Source of the DNA: Candidatus Epulonipiscioides gigas
GTDB lineage: Bacteria; Bacillota; Clostridia; Lachnospirales; Cellulosilyticaceae
Assembly (NCBI GenBank): GCA_001983555.1
Contig: LJHE01000074.1
Coordinates: 17,384-81,383 of the forward strand
Direction of reading: 5' to 3'
Length of the DNA: 64,000 bases
The notes below the pieces were generated by a model that was not told where the DNA came from, ran no database searches, and saw nothing but the letters and a program-made list of their open reading frames with translations. Made by a program: the position numbers and the translations under genes. This document shows positions 1,479-14,818 of this stretch, one piece after another. Position 1 is the stretch's first letter; every line of letters begins with the position of its first letter.

Positions 1479-3284
1479 TTAATTCTCACTAAATAATGCT
1501 TTTGCAAAATCTTCGGGATTAAATTCTTGTAAGTCGTCTAATTTTTCACCCACTCCAACAAATTTAACTGGAATATTTAGACTTTGACAAATTCCAACTA
1601 CTGCTCCACCTTTTGCAGTACCATCAAGTTTAGTCAAGATTATTCCATCAACCTTTACAACTTCATTAAACAATCTAACTTGAGAAATAGCATTTTGACC
1701 AGTTGTTGCATCTAGTACTATTATAACCTGTTTGTAAGCATTTGAATACTCCTTTTCTATAATTCGTCCTATTTTTTCTAATTCTTTCATAAGATTAACT
1801 TTATTTTGTAATCTACCTGCTGTATCACAAATAAGTATATCTGCTTTTCTTGCTTTTGCAGCTGCAATTGCGTCATATACTACAGAGGCTGGATCAACCC
1901 CTTCTTTGTTTTTAATTATGTCTACTCCTGCTCTTTGAGACCATATTTCAAGTTGTTCTATTGCAGCAGCTCTAAAAGTATCTGCAGCAGCTAAAATAAC
2001 TTTTTTACCATCTGATTTAAATCTATGAGCAAGTTTTGCAATGCTTGTAGTTTTCCCAGCTCCATTTACTCCTATAACTAAAATTACATTAGGTTGCCCT
2101 TCAACTATAAGTGGAGCTGTTTCTTCTTTGGATGTTAAAATGTCAGTTATAATTTCTTTTAAAGCCATTTTTAAATCGTTTGGGTCACTGATTTTTCTAT
2201 CTTTAACCACTTCTCTTAGCTTATCTAAAATATTTTCTGTAGTTTCAACTCCAAAATCAGCCATTACTAAAACTTCTTCTAATTCTTCATAAAGTTCTTC
2301 ATCTATCTTTTTAAAACTCTTTAAAACATTTTCAACTCCGCCTAATATATTCTCTCTTGTTTTAGTGAGTCCTTTCCATAATCTTTTAAATATACCTTTT
2401 GTTTTTTCAGCTACTACTTCTTTAAGCTCTTCTTTAAATTCTTCTTTAAGTTCTTCCTTAAGCTCTTCCTTAAGTTCTTCTTTAAGTTCTTCTTTTAGTT
2501 CTGTACTTAAATTATTTTCAGTTTCTTTCTCATTATTTTCTGAAAACTCTTCATCAAAATCAAGTTTTATATCTGGAGCATCTTTGTTTTGCTCAAAATG
2601 TACTTCAATTGGTTTAATTTCTTCGATAATTACTTCAGGTTCTATTTTGGTTGGTTTAACTTTTTTATTAGTTGCTTCTGGTTTTATTTTGGTTGGTTTA
2701 ACTTTTTTATTAGTTGCTTCTGATTTTATTTTAGTTGGTTTAACTTCTTCAATAATTACTTCAGGTTCTATTTTGATTGGTTTAACTTCTTCAATAATTA
2801 CTTCAGGTTCTATTTTGGTTGGTTTAACTTCTTCGATAATTACTTCAGGTTCTATTTTGGTTGGTTTAACTTTTTTATTAGTTGCTTCTGGTTTTATTTT
2901 GGTTGGTTTAATTTTTTTATTAGTTGCTTCTGATTTTATTTTAGTTGGGTTAACTTCTTCAATAATTACTTCAGGTTCTATTTTGGTTAGTTTAACTTCT
3001 TCGATAATTAGTTCGGGTTCTACTTCAACGGGTTTAACTTCTTCAATAATTACTTTTGGTTCTTCTGGTATCTGAAGTTCTTCTCTAATTGCTCTAATCT
3101 TTTCTTCAATTGTCTCCTCTTCAATTATCTCCTCCTCAATTTTTTCTTCATCTTCAACTAATTCAAGCTCTTTAGATATTTTAATTTCTTCTTTTATGAT
3201 AGGTGATGTTTTTAAATTTTTATCCTCTTGAATATTTTTATTTTTCTTACCAAATAATTTTTTTATTCCATCAAATAAAGCCAT
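1479..3284 (-). CDS. ftsY: Signal recognition particle receptor FtsY with a long repetitive acidic N-terminal A-domain
   Basis: C-terminal NG domain with the GVNGAGKTTSIAKLA P-loop and the DTAGR and TKLDGTAKGG motifs. N-terminal ~400 aa consist of E/K/P-rich tandem repeats (EPEVIIEEVKPTKI..; ELKEE x5). The gene lies directly downstream of smc. Confidence 0.9.
   Translation of the reverse strand: MALFDGIKKLFGKKNKNIQEDKNLKTSPIIKEEIKISKELELVEDEEKIEEEIIEEETIEEKIRAIREELQIPEEPKVIIEEVKPVEVEPELIIEEVKLTKIEPEVIIEEVNPTKIKSEATNKKIKPTKIKPEATNKKVKPTKIEPEVIIEEVKPTKIEPEVIIEEVKPIKIEPEVIIEEVKPTKIKSEATNKKVKPTKIKPEATNKKVKPTKIEPEVIIEEIKPIEVHFEQNKDAPDIKLDFDEEFSENNEKETENNLSTELKEELKEELKEELKEELKEEFKEELKEVVAEKTKGIFKRLWKGLTKTRENILGGVENVLKSFKKIDEELYEELEEVLVMADFGVETTENILDKLREVVKDRKISDPNDLKMALKEIITDILTSKEETAPLIVEGQPNVILVIGVNGAGKTTSIAKLAHRFKSDGKKVILAAADTFRAAAIEQLEIWSQRAGVDIIKNKEGVDPASVVYDAIAAAKARKADILICDTAGRLQNKVNLMKELEKIGRIIEKEYSNAYKQVIIVLDATTGQNAISQVRLFNEVVKVDGIILTKLDGTAKGGAVVGICQSLNIPVKFVGVGEKLDDLQEFNPEDFAKALFSEN
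2395..3060. repeat. Coding tandem-repeat tract inside the ftsY A-domain. It has a 15-nt ELKEE unit x5, ~42-nt units (EPEVIIEEVKPTKI) and a 210-bp higher-order duplication (about 2636-2770 versus 2846-2980).
   Basis: Near-identical DNA blocks ('ggttctattttggttggtttaacttttttattagttgcttctg...') recur with a 42-nt and a 210-nt period. The opposite-strand ORF 2365..3075 is an artefact of this tract. Confidence 0.8.
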
Positions 3285-3287
3285 TTT

Positions 3288-6200
3288 TTATTTCCTTTCT
3301 GTAACATAATTTTTAGCATCACTCAATTTAATTGAAAGTAAAGTCGATACTCCTTTTTCTTGTTGAGTAATGCCATATAAGGTATTAGCGTTTTCCATTG
3401 TGCCTTTTCTATGGGTTATTACGATAAATTGTGTATTATTAGATAAACTTTTTAAATATTTAATAAACCTTAATACATTGGCTTCATCTAAAGCTGCTTC
3501 TATTTCATCTAATATACAAAATGGGGACGGTTTAAGTTTCAAAATTGAAAATAATAAGGCAATTGCTGTTAAAGTTCGTTCACCTCCAGATAATAAGCTT
3601 AAATTTTGTAGTTTCTTACCAGGAGGCTGTATAATTATTTCTATTCCAGATTCTAAGATATTTTTTTCATCAGTTAATTTTAATTTAGCTACTCCACCAC
3701 CAAAAAGCTCTTTAAATATAGTTTCAAAATTATTTGCAATATTCTTAAATTCTTTAATAAAAATAATATTCATTTCCATAGTAAGTTTTTCGATTAGTTT
3801 TTCTAAAGTGTTTTGAGCTTTTAAAATATCTTCTTTTTGAGCACTCAAAAAGTTATATCTATTAGAAGTTTCATGAAACTCATTAATTGCATTAGTATTT
3901 ATAGTTCCAATGGTTTTCATCTGAGATTTAAATGTGTTTTGTTGTTTTTTTAAATCTATTTTTTTTAAATCTATATTAGAAAGTTGATTTTTAATGATAT
4001 GCTCATTTGGATCTAAATTATATTCTTCCAATATATATTTATTAAGATTTTTTATTTCTTTGTTTAAATTTTCTATTTGTATTTCTTGTCTAATTATTTC
4101 TTTTTCAAGATTTGAAATTGTATCTGAAATATTTTGTGAGCTCTTTTTAAAAGAAGTTTCCATTTTTAAAAAATTTTTTCTTTCTGTTTCAAGTAATATT
4201 CTATTTTGTTCAATTTCTTTGAGATTAGACTTAATAATTTCTTTTTCTTTAGTTTTTGAGATAATCTCTTTTTCATAATTGGCTTTTTCTAAACTTAATA
4301 TATTAAGTTTATTTTTTAAAAAGTCCATTTTTGAGTTAATTTGTTCAATTTGAGCTTTATTCATAGTAATCTCTTTTTTTATATTACTTATATCTTGCTC
4401 TATTGTATAAAGTTTCATGGAATATTCAGATAAGTTTTCTACATGTTTAAAAGAAATCTGTTCTAGCTCTAATAATTCATTTTCTAATTTATTTGTTGGA
4501 GCAATTGAATTATTATTTTCACTTTTTTTGTGTTCTAATTTTTTTAATTTATTTTCATACTTTAACTTTATTTGTGAAAGTTCTTTTTCAAGCTTTGAAA
4601 CTTCTAAATTAGCAATATTCTTTTGTAAGTTTAAATTTTTTTCAATTTCTAATTTTTGTATCCCATCAAATTGCAGAAGTTCTCTTTCTATATTATCCTT
4701 CTCAGCTTGTATTCTGTCAAGTACACTTAATTTATCTTGAAATTTCTTAGAAATGCTTATATATTTTTGCTGAGATATTTTTATTTTTTTATCTATTTCA
4801 ACTAATATTTTTTTATTTTCGGCAATTTCACGACTTCTATTAAAAATATTGGTTTGTATATTATTTTGAGCTCCTCCAGTAAGTGATCCTCCTACATTAA
4901 ATATCTCTCCATCTAATGTTATAATACGCAACTTATAATCAAATATTCTTGCAATATTGCTTGCATTTTTCATATTATCGGCAATTATAATTCTTCCAAG
5001 TAAAAATGAAAATATAGCTAAATCTTCAGCTTTACAATTAATAATATCTGTAGCTATAGACAAAAAACCTGGTTGTGATACTAATTGTTCTTTTATTTTA
5101 GGGTCAATAGGATTTTTTTTAATAGTATCTCGTGGCAAAAAAGTTACTCTACTAATCTTTTGTTGCTTCATAAGAGTAATAATATTTTGTGCATCTTTAT
5201 GAGTATTAGTAATAATATTTTGTAATGCTCCACCAAGAGCAGTTGCAATTGCTACTTCATATTCTGCTGGTACTTCAATAGTGTTAGCAACAACTTCAAT
5301 TCCCTTAAAGTTATCTTTACTAATTTTTAAAACTTCTTTAACGCTATTATAAAAACCTTCATGATTTTCTTTAAGAGAAATTAACCAATTTTGCTTACGA
5401 TTTAATTGTTCGTAATCATTGTTATATTTATTAATTTGTTCCTCATTTTCTTTATAAATTTTACTTAAATTTTCTTTTTCAGCTAGAGCAACAACAAATT
5501 CTTTTTTTATAGTTACGCTCTTAGCATCTAAAGCTTTCTTATTTTCTTTTAAATACTTAATTTTAATATTTGATTTTTCTAAATCTGTTTCTAATTCTGC
5601 TAATGATTGAAGATGTTTAGTAAGTCTATTTACCAGATTAATTTTTATTTCTTCTATCGATTTTAATTCTACTTCTATAATACTAATATCTTTTTCTAAT
5701 TTATTGGTTTTATCCTTTATTTTACTAACTTCTTTAGCTTTTACTTTTTTTTCTTTATCTACTAAATTTTTTTGCTTATTTAGAGATATGTTTATTGCTT
5801 CTAAACTTTCTTTTTCTGTATTTTTAGTTTTTATATCTATATTTAAAGTATTTAATTTTTGTTTTAAATCTTTGATATAAATTAAGTTATCTTCTTGCTC
5901 TTTTTTATTATCTTTTATTTGCTTATCTATCAAATTTATTTTTTCTGTTATAAGATTTATTTCACTTATTATATTTGCATTTTGTTTTTCTAAATTTATT
6001 GATGTTTTCACATTATCATTTACGTTAGATTGAAAAAGATTTTGTTGTTGTAATAAGTCTTTTTCTTGCTTAATTAAAAGTTTTTTATTTTGTTTTTCAT
6101 CTTCTAATTGAAGTGTAGAAATTTCTAGTCTATTTTCTAATTGCTCTAAAGTTTTATTAATATTATTAGTTTGTTCTAAAAATAAAGCAATATCAACTTG

Positions 6201-6875: not shown

Positions 6876-7616
6876 CTATTTTTTGTAGTGATATCTATTA
6901 ATTAAACCATTATGGGCAGCCATTTGCTCTGCTTCTCGTTTGGTTTTTCCATGCCCAGTGCCAATTACTTTTCCGTTTTGTGCAACTTCTACTTCAAATT
7001 CTTTTTCATGATCAGGACCTTTTTCTTTGATAACCGTATAAGAAAGTACTGTGTCAATTATTTTTTGAGATTCAACTTGTAAAAGTGTTTTATAATCTTT
7101 ATAAAGTTGATTAGCAGAAGTATTTTTAATTGATTCTATTAGAGTATTTGTCAAAAAAGTTTTAACCTGTTCATATGAGCTATCTACTAGCATAGCTCCT
7201 GTAACAGCTTCAAACGCATCAGCTATAATTGAGTCGCGACTTCGACCACCGCCCATTTCTTCGCCATGACCTAACAAAATATATTTTCCTAAATCCAATT
7301 GTTTACCTGCTTTTGCCAAAGATTCTTCACATACAATACTTGCTCTAAATTTAGATAAGTCACCTTCTTGTGATGTTGAATATTTTTTAAATAAATATTC
7401 ACTTACAATTAAATCCAAAATAGCATCTCCTAAAAATTCAAGACGTTCATTATCTTTGACATTTTGCTCACGATGTTCATTGGCATATGAGCTATGAGTA
7501 AGAGCTTGCTCTAAAAATTCCTTTTTTTCAAAGCTATAATTGATTATAGTTTCAAATTGTTTTAACATTTCTTTTCTATTAAGTGACATATACATATTTT
7601 TATTTCTCCATTTCAT
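6876..7616 (-). CDS. rnc: Ribonuclease III
   Basis: RNase III signature ERLEFLGDAILDL plus a C-terminal dsRBD. The gene sits upstream of smc as in other Firmicutes. Confidence 0.9.
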   Translation of the reverse strand: MKWRNKNMYMSLNRKEMLKQFETIINYSFEKKEFLEQALTHSSYANEHREQNVKDNERLEFLGDAILDLIVSEYLFKKYSTSQEGDLSKFRASIVCEESLAKAGKQLDLGKYILLGHGEEMGGGRSRDSIIADAFEAVTGAMLVDSSYEQVKTFLTNTLIESIKNTSANQLYKDYKTLLQVESQKIIDTVLSYTVIKEKGPDHEKEFEVEVAQNGKVIGTGHGKTKREAEQMAAHNGLINRYHYKK

Positions 7617-7760
7617 ATAGTATTTATATATATTTTGTACAATTGTTTTACAAATTATAACATAGAGTTTGAATTAATACTATTATTTACCTCTATACAA
7701 TTTTAGGGCTATGGGGTATAATATAGTTAGCAGTAAGTTGCCGACAATCTACGTAGGGGG

Positions 7761-8015
7761 GTGCAATTTGTGTACAAGGGGGATAATAATATAAAAAAAT
7801 GTAACTGTTGCGGACGTAATATAGATGAAGTTTCTAAAATCTCAGGACATAATGATTTTTTATTAGTTAGAAAAGAATGGGGGTACTTTTCTAATAAAGA
7901 TATGACAGAGCATAGATTTAATATATGTGAAAATTGTTATGATAAATGGATAGAATCATTTAAACTTCCCATTGAAGAATTTATAACAACAGAGCTTTTT
8001 AAGGGAATTAGTTAA
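7761..8015 (+). CDS. Small zinc-ribbon protein (CxCC...CxxC) of unknown function. The start is GTG at 7761 or, more likely, GTG at 7770.
   Basis: 84-aa ORF with two Cys pairs (CNCCG and CENC). The G-rich SD 'taggggggtg' ends 6-7 nt before GTG 7770. A rho-independent terminator follows immediately. Confidence 0.45.
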   Translation: MQFVYKGDNNIKKCNCCGRNIDEVSKISGHNDFLLVRKEWGYFSNKDMTEHRFNICENCYDKWIESFKLPIEEFITTELFKGIS

Positions 8016-8027
8016 TATGATCACAGT

Positions 8028-8064
8028 CTAGTTGAGCCGATGAGGAACAACTAGGCTTTTTTTA
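8028..8064 (+). terminator. Rho-independent terminator after the Zn-ribbon gene
   Basis: 7-bp stem ctagttg/caactag with a 13-nt loop, followed by GC and TTTTTTTA. Confidence 0.6.
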
Positions 8065-8115
8065 TTGAAAAAAATTAAAATTTATGAGATAATTATTTTT
8101 ATAGGGGGGAAAAAA

Positions 8116-10368
8116 ATGCCACATTCACACTTAAATAAATTAACAGACTATTATACCAGCAATAGACAAGAAGGATTTATATATAGAATTCATGGAAAAA
8201 ATAAGTATATTGAAAAATTTTTAGCGGATTATTATGAACAAGTTAAAAGTTATGGGTTGCTTATAGAAGTTAAAATACCAACTCCAACTGAAGATAATAT
8301 AAGATTTTATAAAGATGTTTTAACTGATCAATTTATATTATCCTACGAATTTATAGAAAATAATTTAGAAAAATGGCTCACTGTTGCAACAAAATCTACA
8401 AGAGAAATGTTTGCAAAACATTTGTACAAAACCTTATCACAACACAAGTCATCAGGCAAAAATACAAACATTCTAAAAAATACTTATATAAAATTTATGT
8501 GCTGGGCATATTTTCGTTTTCAACGAGTATTAAATTTTACACCTGTTAATAATAATAGTACAAAAATTTTGTATATTGGAGAATTGTCCAAACATGAATT
8601 AGAATTTTTATCCATTTTAGCTTTTTGTGGTGCGGATGTGTTAATTGTTTCTCGTACAGATGAGGTAAAATACAAAATACTAGATCCAAAAGATGAGCTT
8701 TCTTATATATATAAAGAACCGACAATGATACCGTTTGGAGCTGAATATAGAGCAGCTTATATACAAGAAATTATTAATAAAAAAATTCAAGCTGAAAAGG
8801 AGAGAAATATTATAAAAAGTTATAGCAATGAATGGGTAAATGATGATGCATTTTTAGGACTTATTACTAAAACTAAAGTTCGTAACGCAAAACCTGGTTA
8901 TTTTAACAATATTTTTGTATGTTTTAAAGGAGCAGATGACACAACTTCTTTTGCCAAAAAATTAAATAATCTTTATCAAAACATATTAGAGACAAATCGT
9001 CCATATGTAATAGAAAATCAAATACCTGTTCTCTGGCCAAATGAAATTTCAATCGTAAAAAGAAAATTAATTACCAGTGAAGACGATATGTGTGATGATT
9101 TAAAAAGAAATATAGAAAAAATACCTAATAGAATTTTTTTGGAATCAGCTCAAGAAACTTTTGTAAAAATTGCAAAAGAGATAAATTTTAAAGAAAAAAG
9201 TTTACAAAAATCAACTAATAAATTAGTACAAATGCTTGCTCTATATAAACGATATGAAAATACTTTGTTTGAAAAATCGAGCGAATACCCTCCCATATTT
9301 ATTTTATTTGGTCATACAAAAAATGATATAGAAGTAAACTTTTTAAAATTTTTGGCAAGACTATATGTGGATGTTGTAATTATTCTTAAAGATCCTAATG
9401 AGCAAGTGAATAATGACCCTAATTTATGTATAGTTGAATATGACAATAAGTTAAAGCTAGATGAATTTCCAAAAACTCTTGATAGTATTGTAGCTACAAC
9501 TACTGCATATAATGCTGAACAAGATTTAGAAAATTTAATTTATACTGATACAGGGCTATATAAACAGCATCAAATTGGCAAAGCAAGCAGTTTAACATTA
9601 CGTACAACTTGTGAAGAACTAGATATTTTATGGAAAGAAGAGCTAAAGTTTAGACCGAATTTTAATGTTGAAAACAATAATGTTATAATGCCAGTAATTT
9701 TTGCTAAAATTTCGGGAGTTAAAAATGATAACATAAAAGAATATTATAAAAGAGTTCAAAATTTTGTAATACCTAAAAATACTTTGGTCAAAGTTGCTCC
9801 ACCTTTTATTAATAGAGAAGTTAAATATATGGATTCTACTTCTGCTTCTCATTTTTTAAAAAATGGTCGTCTTTTAAAAGAAGATATTAAAAAGCATCGA
9901 GATTATAAGTTTGGTCATTTAAGACGAGAAATGCAAGATCATCTTTTGGATAAAATAGAGTTATTAATAAATCTCCGATTAATCGAAGGAACGGGTAAAA
10001 ATGGCGTAGAATATTTAATTTTACAATCATTATTAAATCTTGATGATAACTTTTTAAAACAAATGCAAAAATTTGATTTTACTAAACAAAATCCTAAAGT
10101 TGTTGTAATTCATACAAAAGAGCGACAGCATTCAATTGAAGATGCAATATTTTTAGTGTATTCAAATTTAGTTGGTTGTGATATAATTATTATTTCACCT
10201 ACTGGTTATAGAAGTTTTGAAAGATTTTATTCTAAGGACATAATACAAGAACATCAAGATGGAGAATATCGTTACGATTTAACCGCTAACGAGATATTAA
10301 CTCAGCAAAAATTAATTCCAAAAGCTAAAAATATTATAGAAAAAATGATTAATAAATGGAATAACTAG
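8116..10368 (+). CDS. Large (~750 aa) soluble protein of unknown function, possibly YceG-like, immediately upstream of telA.
   Basis: The start is placed at ATG 8116, which has a strong SD (aggggggg) 5 nt upstream. The TTG at 8065 reported by the ORF finder lies in the terminator T-tract. No recognisable catalytic motif. Four recurring beta-alpha-beta-like segments (ILYIGELS..ADVLIVS; IFVCFKGADD; IFILFGHT..VDVVIIL; VVVIHTKE..CDIIIIS). It sits 29 nt upstream of telA, the position yceG occupies relative to yceH/telA in the Bacillus yceCDEFGH operon. Confidence 0.6.
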   Translation: MPHSHLNKLTDYYTSNRQEGFIYRIHGKNKYIEKFLADYYEQVKSYGLLIEVKIPTPTEDNIRFYKDVLTDQFILSYEFIENNLEKWLTVATKSTREMFAKHLYKTLSQHKSSGKNTNILKNTYIKFMCWAYFRFQRVLNFTPVNNNSTKILYIGELSKHELEFLSILAFCGADVLIVSRTDEVKYKILDPKDELSYIYKEPTMIPFGAEYRAAYIQEIINKKIQAEKERNIIKSYSNEWVNDDAFLGLITKTKVRNAKPGYFNNIFVCFKGADDTTSFAKKLNNLYQNILETNRPYVIENQIPVLWPNEISIVKRKLITSEDDMCDDLKRNIEKIPNRIFLESAQETFVKIAKEINFKEKSLQKSTNKLVQMLALYKRYENTLFEKSSEYPPIFILFGHTKNDIEVNFLKFLARLYVDVVIILKDPNEQVNNDPNLCIVEYDNKLKLDEFPKTLDSIVATTTAYNAEQDLENLIYTDTGLYKQHQIGKASSLTLRTTCEELDILWKEELKFRPNFNVENNNVIMPVIFAKISGVKNDNIKEYYKRVQNFVIPKNTLVKVAPPFINREVKYMDSTSASHFLKNGRLLKEDIKKHRDYKFGHLRREMQDHLLDKIELLINLRLIEGTGKNGVEYLILQSLLNLDDNFLKQMQKFDFTKQNPKVVVIHTKERQHSIEDAIFLVYSNLVGCDIIIISPTGYRSFERFYSKDIIQEHQDGEYRYDLTANEILTQQKLIPKAKNIIEKMINKWNN

Positions 10369-10397
10369 AAATAATATATAGAAAGGATGTTTAATAA

Positions 10398-11531
10398 ATG
10401 GCAATAAATATGGGGGCTAAAGACAATTCAATGCTACAAAAATCGATCTCAGATAATAATGAATTTGCCGTATCTGAATATAATATTCAAGAAGATGTCG
10501 ATAAATTTGTACAAAATTTGCAAGGCTCACAGGTTATTGAAGATTTAACAGCTCTGATAGATATTGGAAATCCTGAAACAATTGTAACTTTTGGTAATGA
10601 AGTTGCAACTGAACTTTCAAAGACTTCTGATACAGTTTTAAACAATATGAGCATAGATAAAATCAATGAATCAAGTCAAATGTTAGAAATACTTGGTAAT
10701 ATTATGGATCAATTTAATATTGATGAAATTCAAGCAACAGAAAATCAAAATTTATTTTCTAAATTTTTAAATAATGGTCAAAAAAAACTTGAGCAAATCT
10801 TAAATAAATACAATACTATAGGTAGCGAAGTTGATAAAGTGTACATTCAACTTAAAGAATATGAAAAAGAAATTCATGAATCTAATAAGAATTTAGAAAA
10901 AATATTTCAAAGTAATGTTAATTTTTATCATAATCTTTTAGAATATATCGTCGCAGGTGAACAAGGTGTTAAAGAAATAGAAGATTATATTGCTCAAAGA
11001 AGAGCAGAATTTGAGAAAACTGGAGATACATCTATCCATTTTGAAATTGCAAATTTAGAGCAAGCTTCTCAAATGTTAGCGCAACGTACTCTAGATCTTA
11101 GAATTGCGGAAAATGTGGCATTACAATCTATACCAATGCTTAAAACAATGCAATTTAGTAATTTAAATCTTATTAGAAAAATTAATTCAGCTTTTATAAT
11201 TACTTTACCTATTTTCAAGCAATCTCTTGCACAGGCTATTATGTTAAAGCGCCAAAAAATACAATCTGAAGCTATGTCTGCACTTGACAAAAAAACAAAT
11301 GAAATGCTCTTAAAAAATGCTCAAAATACAGTAGAGCAAGCTAAATTAATATCTAAACTTGCATCTTCTAGCTCTATAAAAGTGGATACATTAGAACAGA
11401 CTTGGCAAATAATAAAAGATGGAATAGAAGAAACTAAACAAATACAAAAAGAAGTCTTATCAGAACGACAATCAGATATAAAACGTTTAAGTACTATAAA
11501 AGAAGATTTAAAAAATTCTTTTGTTAAATAA
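10398..11531 (+). CDS. telA: TelA-family toxic-anion-resistance protein (KlaA/TelA/YceH-like)
   Basis: 377-aa all-helical protein with TelA-like length and composition. It is tightly linked to two TerD genes. The family assignment rests on recognition of the family plus gene context. Confidence 0.65.
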   Translation: MAINMGAKDNSMLQKSISDNNEFAVSEYNIQEDVDKFVQNLQGSQVIEDLTALIDIGNPETIVTFGNEVATELSKTSDTVLNNMSIDKINESSQMLEILGNIMDQFNIDEIQATENQNLFSKFLNNGQKKLEQILNKYNTIGSEVDKVYIQLKEYEKEIHESNKNLEKIFQSNVNFYHNLLEYIVAGEQGVKEIEDYIAQRRAEFEKTGDTSIHFEIANLEQASQMLAQRTLDLRIAENVALQSIPMLKTMQFSNLNLIRKINSAFIITLPIFKQSLAQAIMLKRQKIQSEAMSALDKKTNEMLLKNAQNTVEQAKLISKLASSSSIKVDTLEQTWQIIKDGIEETKQIQKEVLSERQSDIKRLSTIKEDLKNSFVK

Positions 11532-11564
11532 ATTGAATTTGAAAAATAAAAAGGAGACATAACG

Positions 11565-12143
11565 ATGGCAATCAATCTTCAAAAAGGACAAAAAGTAAAT
11601 CTTACAAAATCATATAAATCAATTTCAAAACTTTTAATAGGTCTTGGATGGGATATTAATTCTTATGATGGCAACTTTGAGTTTGATTTAGACACTAGTA
11701 TTTTTATGATTGGACAAAATGACAAAGTTATGAAAGATAGTGATTTCATTTTCTATGGTAATCTAAAACATGATAGTGATTCTGTAGAACATATGGGTGA
11801 CAACAGAACTGGCGAAGGAGATGGTGACGATGAAGTTATAAAAATAGATTTGACTAAAGTTCCATCTGAAATTAAAAAAATTGTTTTTACCACCACAATT
11901 TATGACGCTGTAGAAAGAAATCAAAATTTTGGGCAAATTTCAAATGCTTTTATTAGAATAGTTGATGCAACAAGTAATACTGAACTATTAAAATATAATC
12001 TTGGAGAAGATTTTTCTATTGAAACAGCCCTTGTCGTCGGAGAAATATACCGTTATGATAATGATTGGAAGTTTGCTGCTATAGGAAGTGGATATAGCGG
12101 TGGGCTGAAAATGCTTTGCCAAGTTTATGGAGTGGATGTTTAA
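11565..12143 (+). CDS. TerD-family stress protein (paralog 1)
   Basis: 192 aa with the canonical TerD N-terminus MAINLQKGQKVNLTK, the GDNRTGEGDGDDEVI Ca-binding-type motif and a C-terminal FAAIGSGYSGGL. AAAGGAG SD. Confidence 0.85.
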   Translation: MAINLQKGQKVNLTKSYKSISKLLIGLGWDINSYDGNFEFDLDTSIFMIGQNDKVMKDSDFIFYGNLKHDSDSVEHMGDNRTGEGDGDDEVIKIDLTKVPSEIKKIVFTTTIYDAVERNQNFGQISNAFIRIVDATSNTELLKYNLGEDFSIETALVVGEIYRYDNDWKFAAIGSGYSGGLKMLCQVYGVDV

Positions 12144-12232
12144 CTGTCAACAAATCCATTGAAATGGTATATACTTGTGAAAACAAGTATATTGACATGC
12201 ATGACTATAAGTATTAAAAGGAGAGATAAGAA

Positions 12233-12814
12233 ATGGCAGTCAATTTATCTAAAGGTCAAAAAGTTAGTTTAACTAAAGACAGAGCATCTTTATCAAAAAT
12301 ATCAGTAGGTCTTGGATGGGATACTAAACGTTTTGATGGAGGTTCAGATTTCGATTTAGATAGTGTAATTTTTTTAGTTACTGGAAATGGTAGTGTTAAA
12401 GACCAAGATGATTTTATATTTTATGGTAATTTAACTCATAAAACAGGTTCTGTTCAACACATGGGTGATAATAAAACTGGTATTGGTGATGGTGATGATG
12501 AAGTTATAAATATTACCCTTAAGGATATTCCACCTTATGTTGAGCGTATAATTATAGCTGCTACAATTTATGAAGCTGAACAACGAAATCAAAACTTTGG
12601 TCAAGTAGAAAATGCTTATATAAAAATTTATGATCAACTAAAAAATGAAACTATATTGCAATATGACTTAAATGAAGATTTTTCTATAGAAACATCTATG
12701 GTTTTTGGAGAAATTTATAGAAATAATGATGAATGGAAATTTAATGCCATAGGAAGTGGATTTTTCGGAGGACTTGCTGCTCTTTGTGCAACTTATGGAT
12801 TAGACGCTAATTAA
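12233..12814 (+). CDS. TerD-family stress protein (paralog 2)
   Basis: 193 aa carrying MAVNLSKGQKVSLTK, GDNKTGIGDGDDEVI and FNAIGSGFFGGL. Clear paralog of the preceding gene. AAAGGAG SD. Confidence 0.85.
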   Translation: MAVNLSKGQKVSLTKDRASLSKISVGLGWDTKRFDGGSDFDLDSVIFLVTGNGSVKDQDDFIFYGNLTHKTGSVQHMGDNKTGIGDGDDEVINITLKDIPPYVERIIIAATIYEAEQRNQNFGQVENAYIKIYDQLKNETILQYDLNEDFSIETSMVFGEIYRNNDEWKFNAIGSGFFGGLAALCATYGLDAN

Positions 12815-12844
12815 TTAAATTAAGAAACGGAGAATAGAAATAAT

Positions 12845-13216
12845 ATGAAAATTCATACAAATAATGCTCCAGCTGCAATTGGACCATATTCACAAGCTAT
12901 AACACATCAAAATTTAATCTTTACTTCAGGTCAAATTCCGTTAAACCCAGAAACTGGTGAGATAGTTGGAGACACAATTACAGAGCAGACAGAACAAGTT
13001 TTAAAAAATTTAGGAGAAGTATTAAAAGAAGGCAATTCTAGTTTTGAAAATGCTATTAAATGTACTTGCTTTTTAACTGATATGAGAGATTTTGCCGCTT
13101 TTAATGAAGTATACACAAAGTATTTTACGAGCGATCCTGCACGCTCTTGTATTGCGGTTAAAACTCTTCCAAGAAACGTCTTAGTAGAAGTTGAATGTGT
13201 TGCTCATATTAACTAG
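12845..13216 (+). CDS. ridA: RidA/YjgF-family reactive-intermediate (enamine/imine) deaminase
   Basis: 123 aa with PAAIGPYSQA.., ..FTSGQIP.. and a C-terminal ..RSCIAV..LP..VLVEVE.. typical of the YjgF/RidA family. Confidence 0.8.
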   Translation: MKIHTNNAPAAIGPYSQAITHQNLIFTSGQIPLNPETGEIVGDTITEQTEQVLKNLGEVLKEGNSSFENAIKCTCFLTDMRDFAAFNEVYTKYFTSDPARSCIAVKTLPRNVLVEVECVAHIN

Positions 13217-13247
13217 GTTTTTAGGGATTAAATAAATAAAAATTATG

Positions 13248-13290
13248 AGCTAGGAGTAAAAAATAAAAGCTCCTAGTTTACTATTTTAAT
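13248..13290 (+). terminator. Rho-independent terminator after ridA
   Basis: Stem gctaggag/ctcctag(t) with an A-rich loop, followed by tttactatttt. Confidence 0.55.
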
Positions 13291-13435
13291 TATTTATTAC
13301 ATATTTTTTGTGCGCAAGAATAAACTAAATAAAGAAGAATATATAGATTAGTTAGGCTGTTTTAATTTAATAAAAAAGGGGGGAACTGCTCGATAATGGG
13401 TCATAATGTTCGGTATGGGTCTTTAGATAGCAGTA

Positions 13436-14818
13436 GTGCAAATGGAGAATACAACAAATAAAATCAATCTTGGAGAAGGAAATGTAGGAAAACTTATTTT
13501 TAAATTAGCAATTCCTACAGTTGCATCTCAAATTGTAAATATGTTATATAATATTGTTGATAGAATGTATATAGGAAATATGGAAGGAGATGGAGTATTA
13601 GCTCTTACGGGTCTTGGTTTATGCTTTCCAATAATTATGATTGTTTCAGCATTTGCTGCATTATTTGGAATGGGTGGAGCTCCAAAAGCAGCTATTGAAA
13701 TGGGTAAGGGCGACAATAATAAAGCAGAGCTCATTCTTGGTAACTGTTTAATAAGTTTACTAATTTTTGGTATTGGTTTAATGATTATTCTCTTATTATT
13801 TGGAGAGCGACTTTTATATATGTTTGGAGCAAGTGATAATACAATTGTTTTTGCTATGGATTATTTGAGGATTTATACCATTGGAACACTTTTTGTGCAA
13901 ATTGCTCTTGGTCTTAATCTGTTTATAACAACTCAAGGTTTTACAAAATATAGTATGTTAACTGTTGTTATAGGAGCAACATTAAATATTATACTAGACC
14001 CCATTTTCATATTTGGCTTTGATATGGGTGTTAAAGGAGCAGCTCTTGCAACAATAATTTCTCAAGCTGTATCTGCTACATGGGTTTTATGTTTTTTGGT
14101 TGGAAAAAAATCTAAATTAAAAATTAGAGTCAAAAATTTTAAAATTAAATCATCAATTATTTTACCTGTTATGGCACTGGGAATTTCACCTTTTATTATG
14201 CAATCAACAGAAAGTATTTTAAATATTTCATTTAATGTATCTTTATCCAAATATGGCGGGGACTTAGCTGTTGGAGCTATGACTATAATTAGTAGCATAA
14301 TGTCTTTAACGCTTATGCCTTTGCAAGGAATTACACAAGGAGCTCAGCCTGTTATAAGTTTTAATTTTGGTGCACAAAATTTTGATAGAGTAAAACAAGC
14401 TATACGCATACAAATCTTAGTTTGTGTAACATTTTCTATAGTTTGTTGGTTATTACTAGAAATATTTTCTACACTATTTATATCAATCTTTAATGACGAA
14501 GCTGAGCTTTTAGAAATTACAACTTGGTGCATGAGAGTTTATATGTTTGGAATATGTTCCCTTGGACTTCAAATTGCTTGCCAATATTCGTTCATTGCTT
14601 TAGGATATGCAAAAATTTCATTATTACTTGCATGCCTTAGAAAAATAATTCTTTTAATACCACTAATATTTATTTTGCCTAACTTTTTTGAAAATAAAGT
14701 TTTTGCAGTATTTGTTGCAGAACCAATAGCAGATATTACAGCAAGCATTATTACAGCTATTACATTTTTTACTGTATTTTGGAATAGACCTGAGTTTAAA
14801 AAAATAAAAGAAAAATAA
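13436..14818 (+). CDS. MATE-family efflux transporter
   Basis: About 12 TM segments and an N-terminal KLIFKLAIPTVASQIVNMLYNIVDRMYIG, typical of MATE/NorM proteins. The start is GTG 13436 or ATG 13442 with a weak SD. Confidence 0.8.
   Translation: MQMENTTNKINLGEGNVGKLIFKLAIPTVASQIVNMLYNIVDRMYIGNMEGDGVLALTGLGLCFPIIMIVSAFAALFGMGGAPKAAIEMGKGDNNKAELILGNCLISLLIFGIGLMIILLLFGERLLYMFGASDNTIVFAMDYLRIYTIGTLFVQIALGLNLFITTQGFTKYSMLTVVIGATLNIILDPIFIFGFDMGVKGAALATIISQAVSATWVLCFLVGKKSKLKIRVKNFKIKSSIILPVMALGISPFIMQSTESILNISFNVSLSKYGGDLAVGAMTIISSIMSLTLMPLQGITQGAQPVISFNFGAQNFDRVKQAIRIQILVCVTFSIVCWLLLEIFSTLFISIFNDEAELLEITTWCMRVYMFGICSLGLQIACQYSFIALGYAKISLLLACLRKIILLIPLIFILPNFFENKVFAVFVAEPIADITASIITAITFFTVFWNRPEFKKIKEK

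Follow-up and report, generated by a model that had tools for sequence, protein, structure and literature searches.

A chromosomal yceG-telA-terD-terD locus of Candidatus Epulonipiscioides gigas encodes a YceG protein of three homologous domains

In Bacillus, the yceCDEFGH operon encodes three TerD proteins, TerC (YceF), YceG and TelA (YceH), and this gene set was seen on plasmid pLUSID2 of B. thuringiensis. The yce operon of B. subtilis is controlled by sigma-W, sigma-B and sigma-M, yceGH mutants of B. anthracis show sensitivity to tellurite, H2O2 and cathelicidin, and the LiaRS-regulated telA of Listeria contributes to nisin resistance. A related plasmid-borne cluster, on pFI430 of Lactococcus cremoris, has the order yceG-telA-terD-terD-terD, with a biosynthetic module before it and a gene for a DUF475 membrane protein after it. 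Here, a 64,000-nucleotide stretch of contig LJHE01000074.1 from Candidatus Epulonipiscioides gigas (the window) was analyzed for a block of five genes at positions 7761-12814, i.e., a small Zn-ribbon protein gene, yceG, telA and two terD genes. An original prediction had placed these five co-oriented genes between rnc-smc-ftsY and ridA, and open reading frame (ORF) and Pfam scans confirmed this layout, with rnc, smc and ftsY on the minus strand upstream of the block and ridA downstream. The locus was identified as a stress-response operon of the Bacillus yceGH/ter type (YceG-TelA-TerD-TerD) that is chromosomal and was inherited vertically.

The block carries the same protein families as the Bacillus yce operon and pLUSID2 (PF14266, PF05816 and PF02342). 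First, yceG (8116-10368, plus strand), whose ATG at 8116 is preceded by a GGGGGG ribosome-binding site, encodes a 750-amino-acid (aa) protein that matched PF14266 (YceG_bac) with 254.1 bits (E = 2e-75; Pfam gathering cut-off of 25 bits) in three stretches. Second, telA (10398-11531, plus strand) encodes a 377-aa, YceH-like toxic anion resistance protein with 300.9 bits to PF05816 (E = 1.5e-89; cut-off of 30 bits) over model positions 1-329 of 332. Third, the products of terD copy 1 (11565-12143, plus strand; 192 aa) and copy 2 (12233-12814, plus strand; 193 aa) matched PF02342 with 273.6 bits (E = 8.7e-82) and 259.8 bits (E = 1.5e-77), respectively. Thus, the assignment of one TelA and two TerD proteins held, and the large gene does lie in the slot of yceG upstream of telA. 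Identity to the B. thuringiensis proteins amounted to 29% for YceG, 38% for TelA and 36-43% for TerD. As in Bacillus, yceG-telA is combined with several terD paralogues, but the terD genes precede yceG-telA there, whereas they follow it in the window. The order on pFI430 is that of the window, which has two terD genes instead of three.

The large protein had been described as lacking any recognizable catalytic motif and as being either a new TelA/TerD partner or an unusually long member of the YceG family, and a hidden Markov model search of the 8116-10368 product had been suggested as a check. With PF14266 matched far above the cut-off, the family was clearly recognizable, whereas the absence of a catalytic motif stood insofar as neither Walker A (GxxxxGK[ST]) nor GK[ST] was found by regular-expression search of all 750 aa. 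BLASTP aligned residues 393-722 with YceG of pLUSID2 (29% identity over 343 columns, E = 6e-32). The product is 100% identical to the NCBI entry AN641_08550 of Ca. Epulonipiscioides gigas, which is labelled "hypothetical protein", and its orthologue in Candidatus Epulonipiscium viviparus (747 aa, 66% identical) is named "YceG family protein" by NCBI.

Three tandem YceG domains were delimited: domain 1 at roughly aa 1-232 (8116-8811), domain 2 at aa 233-463 (8812-9504) and domain 3 at aa 486-722 (9571-10281), all on the plus strand, with a linker at aa 464-485 that is disordered in the AlphaFold2 model. Each third alone passed the 250-position PF14266 model, with E-values of 3.6e-12, 2.4e-20 and 1.2e-47 (46.9, 73.7 and 163.1 bits, respectively). 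Profile-profile comparison of the three segments (hhalign), built across 40 homologues, gave a probability of 98.6% (E = 6e-16) for domain 1 against domain 2 and of 78.8% for domain 1 against domain 3. Since YceG of pLUSID2, with 543 aa, has two such domains and the protein of the window has three, the approximately 210 extra residues are, as judged by sequence comparison, one more copy of the family's own domain and no new module.

This length was not unusual for the family. A first search placed 63 of 65 homologues within 720-775 aa. An exhaustive HMMER search with the C-terminal YceG domain yielded 626 representative clusters; among the best 150 of these, 79 had 700-799 aa, 27 had at least 800 aa and 18 had 450-639 aa. 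Moreover, the best 80 of at least 522 confirmed yceG stretches (one genome per species), to which all counts out of 80 below refer, covered roughly residues 3-725 without exception. Two of these loci stem from Epulopiscium metagenome-assembled genomes (MAGs; L001 and L002) and the others from Lachnospiraceae (L003-L080), where YceG is of the same three-domain type with about 755 aa and 35-38% identity. A profile of two-domain forms aimed at Bacillus YceG retrieved only further Lachnospiraceae proteins of about 756 aa, and Bacillus-type YceG was reached through tblastn against plasmids. The pFI430 protein (534 aa) is also of the two-domain type. Ten family members of about 510-565 aa bore no Bacillus names in a cluster look-up, which placed members in Blautia, Fusobacteriaceae and Succinimonas. 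Proteins of about 750 aa are thus the most frequent length class of the family and the rule in Lachnospirales, and the large protein is an ordinary YceG of the Lachnospirales type, with three homologous domains compared with two in Bacilli.

Two of the shorter forms differed in the domain that was missing. The metagenomic protein P0136 lacked domain 1 and aligned to aa 237-738, and P0120, from a Blautia MAG, lacked domain 2 and aligned to aa 3-238 plus 406-747. These two different two-domain forms suggest that domains were lost or gained independently in the family.

Linkage in the 80 related loci was read by tblastn using the window proteins as queries. For further comparison, pLUSID2 (L081), the Ca. 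E. viviparus sequence CP117982.1 (L083) and pFI430 (L085) were included. A lack of conserved linkage to telA/terD had been named as an outcome that would speak against the proposed association; instead, telA lay immediately downstream of yceG in 80/80 loci, and one to three terD genes lay 3' of telA wherever the contig extended far enough. Pairs of yceG and telA were also present on B. thuringiensis and Aneurinibacillus plasmids. The two ORFs overlapped by 10 nt in L001, 10 nt in E. viviparus and 29 nt in L002, which suggests coupled translation in these Epulopiscium relatives, whereas the genes of the window are 29 nt apart.

Synteny with E. viviparus comprised rnc-smc followed by the Zn-ribbon gene, yceG, telA and, further on, two terD genes. 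It differed from the window in that telA and the terD pair are separated there by two inserted GGDEF diguanylate-cyclase genes. These genes (L083, 10674-13472) encode a protein of 465 aa and one of 462 aa with a GAF domain, and their insertion hints at a link of cyclic di-GMP to the Ter module in E. viviparus. In the second Epulopiscium MAG locus (L002, Epulopiscium sp. Nuni2H_MBin001), only one terD gene follows telA. Two extra terD genes (4078-5259) lie about 3 kb upstream of yceG there, separated from it by genes for a methyl-accepting chemotaxis protein with a zinc-binding CZB domain and for a Mem_trans transporter.

To identify additional neighbors, the flanking ORFs in the 80 loci were clustered and searched against Pfam. 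The Lachnospiraceae clusters share the order yceG-telA-terD with the window, usually with three terD genes rather than two. Upstream, most of them carry genes for a C-C bond lyase, PRTase_2/TRSP, StiP-PELOTA, a YceG-trypsin protein and a rhomboid protein. Downstream of the terD genes, a P2-type cation ATPase (67/80; matching Cation_ATPase_N/C and E1-E2) and a HAD hydrolase (53/80) were found, e.g., at 13437-16922 of L003. A P-type ATPase gene adjoins telA on pLUSID2 as well. The YceG-trypsin gene, located just upstream of yceG in 52/80 loci, encodes in L003 (6066-7628) a 520-aa protein with an N-terminal YceG domain (PF14266, 2e-11) and a C-terminal trypsin-like peptidase (Trypsin_2, 4e-24), and a small rhomboid protease gene often stands between it and yceG (38/80).

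None of these additional genes was detected in the window. Searches by tblastn with Lachnospiraceae versions of PRTase, C-C bond lyase, StiP and HAD gave no match at E <= 1e-3 in the 64 kb, and these biosynthetic-module genes were likewise not found in the Epulopiscium loci L001 and L002. The P2-type ATPase, YceG-trypsin and rhomboid genes had no tblastn match in the window or in these two MAG loci. TerC, which Bacillus has as YceF, was absent from the window, since B. thuringiensis TerC gave no tblastn match at E <= 1 there, and from all 80 related loci; in this respect the window differs from the classical ter operon (terZABCDE) and from the full Bacillus yce operon. TerB was not among the genes Pfam-scanned between window positions 648 and 18354. 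The local absence of TerC and of the biosynthetic genes had been predicted correctly, but the accompanying proposal that the large protein stands in their place did not hold: YceG and the biosynthetic genes were present together in 35-53 of the 80 loci and on pFI430. YceG normally accompanies these genes and does not replace them, and the Epulopiscium locus is a pared-down, minimal conserved core.

The structure of YceG was modelled with AlphaFold2 on a 40-sequence alignment. The full-length model reached a pLDDT of 84.9 and a pTM of 0.55, the latter being consistent with flexibly linked domains, and domain 3 alone a pLDDT of 89.3 and a pTM of 0.90. Each modelled domain has the layout beta-alpha-beta, helical insert, beta-alpha-beta(-beta). 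In the structural comparison that had been suggested together with the modelling, the best Foldseek match had E = 0.088 and none was significant. Sequence searches of the Protein Data Bank with the YceG profile and with TelA gave no matches. After strand beta-1 the family consensus reads RI.GY / R..GVEDK / AK.SGVK.G, and every repeat has a conserved Gly after beta-1 and an Asp at the start of beta-4. Most invariant polar residues are borne by domain 3 (E501, R513, K531, K613, D654, K661, D689 and T696), and these may leave room for a ligand-binding or even a catalytic site.

At the level of the fold, YceG remotely resembled AAA+ initiator-clade cores (DnaA, Cdc6/ORC, TnsC and Hda), with 4-12% identity, but unlike these it has neither Walker A nor Walker B. 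On the basis of the model, the fold is probably remotely AAA+/P-loop-like and the protein probably not a nucleoside triphosphatase; no assignment to the AAA+/P-loop superfamily was made. A more far-reaching proposal, which is speculative and more likely wrong than right by a wide margin, would regard the YceG domain as an unrecognized, catalytically dead AAA+/P-loop derivative, of which two or three copies form a covalent pseudo-oligomer. This would sense a ligand, such as Ca2+-loaded TerD or a nucleotide-like signal, and control TelA at the membrane, so that YceG-TelA-TerD would be a self-sufficient minimal Ter core without TerC, TerB or metabolite-synthesis genes.

Both TerD copies aligned with TerD of Klebsiella pneumoniae (2kxt), at 1.2e-65 (copy 1) and 1.4e-62 (copy 2). 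The published Ca2+-ligand positions of 2kxt (D-L-D, GDN.TG.GDGDDE) are all conserved in both, and the predicted Ca2+-binding sites thus appear intact in either copy. The retention of these positions and the P2-type cation ATPase gene next to most related loci suggest a link of the system to Ca2+.

The explanation favored here combines the identity of the operon with a Ca2+-linked stress mechanism in which YceG acts as a scaffold, and as a whole it is given slightly better than even chances. All products would be soluble and cytoplasmic; their sequences contained no convincing transmembrane segment. The two TerD proteins may act as Ca2+-binding sensors or buffers, and TelA would be the effector, shielding the envelope or membrane during stress. 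YceG may serve as a non-enzymatic, ligand- or partner-binding scaffold and as the obligate multi-domain partner of TelA, its domains being putative degenerate alpha/beta units of a P-loop/AAA+-like type that contain a helical insert but no Walker A. The adaptor or scaffold role is suggested by the missing Walker A/GK[ST] motifs and by the relatives (52/80) in which a YceG domain is fused to a trypsin-like protease. Jointly, the proteins could make the cell more tolerant of agents that damage the envelope or cause oxidative stress, e.g., antimicrobial peptides, peroxide and oxyanions. A role in stress is suggested by the B. anthracis mutants, the sigma-factor control in B. subtilis and Listeria telA. 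Two points weigh against this explanation: the Ca2+ link is based on conserved motifs and gene neighborhood, with the P2-type ATPase gene absent in the window, and the invariant polar residues of domain 3 would also fit a catalytic site.

The latter residues lead to an enzymatic alternative. Anantharaman et al. reportedly described in 2012 a Ter "biosynthetic module" (PRTase, C-C bond lyase, StiP and HAD) for which a nucleoside-like metabolite was postulated. YceG might be an enzyme of this module that makes or modifies the metabolite, with TelA and TerD responding to the product. In Lachnospiraceae and Lactococcus, yceG directly follows the C-C lyase, PRTase_2/TRSP, StiP and HAD genes (see also PMC11994780), and the set of invariant charged residues in domain 3 would agree with an enzyme. 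Since neither Walker A, GK[ST] nor any other recognizable catalytic motif occurs in YceG, however, this reading is considered unlikely. In addition, yceG-telA is kept without nearby biosynthetic genes in the window, in the Epulopiscium loci L001 and L002 and on the B. thuringiensis and Aneurinibacillus plasmids, and the invariant neighbor of yceG is telA, not the biosynthetic genes.

Less probable still is a role of the block as a defence island against phages or for abortive infection. Ter operons have a historical phage-inhibition phenotype, and yceG-telA-terD clusters were found on plasmids. However, PADLOC-DB 2.0 gave no match for YceG, TelA or either TerD, and its one match in the block, between the Zn-ribbon protein and Cas8b, is treated below as due to chance. 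The locus is syntenic from rnc-smc to terD across Epulopiscium species, and its base composition does not differ notably from that of the flanking sequence. These three observations make a defence island improbable. Furthermore, hundreds of Lachnospirales species have the cluster in the same gene order, a pattern typical of a housekeeping stress operon and not of a mobile defence island.

Two transcription units were predicted within the block and its downstream flank. The Zn-ribbon gene (plus strand) starts at GTG 7770 or, less likely, at GTG 7761 and ends at 8015; the former start gives the 81 aa annotated by NCBI, the latter 84 aa. It ends, as the original prediction had stated, in its own intrinsic terminator at 8025-8064 (plus strand), a 10-bp G+C-rich stem followed by U7 (-18.2 kcal/mol, z = -3.66), and E. 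viviparus has a corresponding hairpin followed by a T-run. Upstream of this gene, a promoter-like site TATACA-17-TATAAT at 7694-7722 (plus strand; 10/12 consensus matches) lies in a region conserved in E. viviparus. A second promoter-like site, TTGAAA-17-GATAAT with an extended TG (8065-8093, plus strand; 10/12 matches), is a candidate for the yceG operon; it directly follows the Zn-ribbon terminator and ends 23 nt before ATG 8116. The promoter scan was by consensus matching and returned 46 sites compared with 39.6 expected in shuffled sequence, i.e., no enrichment.

At the other end, ridA (12845-13216, plus strand), encoding a Rid family deaminase (PF01042 at 4e-43; TIGR00004 at 1.2e-50), begins 30 nt after terD copy 2. 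The first strong terminator-like hairpin, with a 12-bp stem and a U-rich tail (-17.7 kcal/mol, z = -5.0), stands 3' of ridA at 13246-13280 (plus strand). Given the short gap and the hairpin behind it, ridA probably shares the transcript and closes the predicted operon. It lies outside the widely conserved module: ridA was also found 3' of terD in the Epulopiscium MAG locus L002 and was adjacent in no Lachnospiraceae locus. Together, the terminator at 8025-8064 and the hairpin at 13246-13280 indicate that the Zn-ribbon gene is probably transcribed alone and yceG-telA-terD-terD-ridA as one unit, from a promoter of its own, up to about 13280. A scan of 7000-13600 with Rfam (E <= 1) revealed no riboswitch or leader. 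Within the 89-nt gap between the terD genes, a perfect 10-bp A+T-rich hairpin, UAUAUACUUG-UGAAAA-CAAGUAUAUA, was observed at 12169-12192; no T-run follows it, and its folding z of -1.9 was not significant. Among the upstream genes, minus-strand ftsY (1479-3284) encodes a protein of 601 aa in which the SRP54 N and GTPase domains start only at about residue 316, so that about 315 N-terminal aa, an unusually long extension, have no Pfam match.

The Zn-ribbon protein had no curated family match in Pfam or NCBIfam. Its homologues were confined to four Epulopiscium-group genomes (73-99% identity), all of which share an invariant CxCC (C11, C13 and C14) and CxxC (C53 and C56). Marginal similarity to Cas8b/TM1802-type CRISPR large-subunit models (E about 2e-3 to 4e-3; PADLOC Cas8b E = 0.0017) was almost certainly a chance resemblance of the Cys-knuckle region. 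The gene directly precedes yceG in the same orientation in E. gigas, E. viviparus and, by locus tags, E. saccharophilum, and its product is better conserved than YceG (73-83% vs. 56-66% identity), which could point to a role as a regulator or component dedicated to the yceG-telA-terD module. Such a role is nevertheless very doubtful. The gene has its own conserved terminator and its narrow distribution, and even a search at E <= 10 found it in none of the related yceG loci (0/80). In Epulopiscium sp. Nuni2H_MBin003, moreover, the Zn-ribbon gene and yceG lie on different contigs, and yceG is preceded there by sialic-acid-type biosynthesis genes (NeuB and a cytidylyltransferase). The gene is therefore best read as an independent, Epulopiscium-lineage-specific neighbor outside the conserved Ter module, with metal binding predicted from its cysteines. 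Finally, a new TelA/TerD partner unrelated to YceG is ruled out for practical purposes by the score of 254 bits against a cut-off of 25, by the alignment with B. thuringiensis YceG at E = 6e-32, and by the family name that NCBI already gives the E. viviparus orthologue.

As a discovery the locus is modest, since its proteins are recognizable YceG, TelA and TerD family members and the orthologue is already so labelled in public databases. Its comparison with relatives shows that the length classes of YceG reflect the copy number, two or three, of one domain of about 230 aa. The only invariant neighbors, yceG-telA-terD, define a minimal core, and the frequent P2-type cation ATPase neighbor adds weight to the Ca2+ hypothesis for TerD. 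No solved structure is closely related to the YceG domain, whose merely remote resemblance to AAA+ cores and missing P-loop argue for an adaptor over an enzyme role. The comparison could guide experiments on this family.

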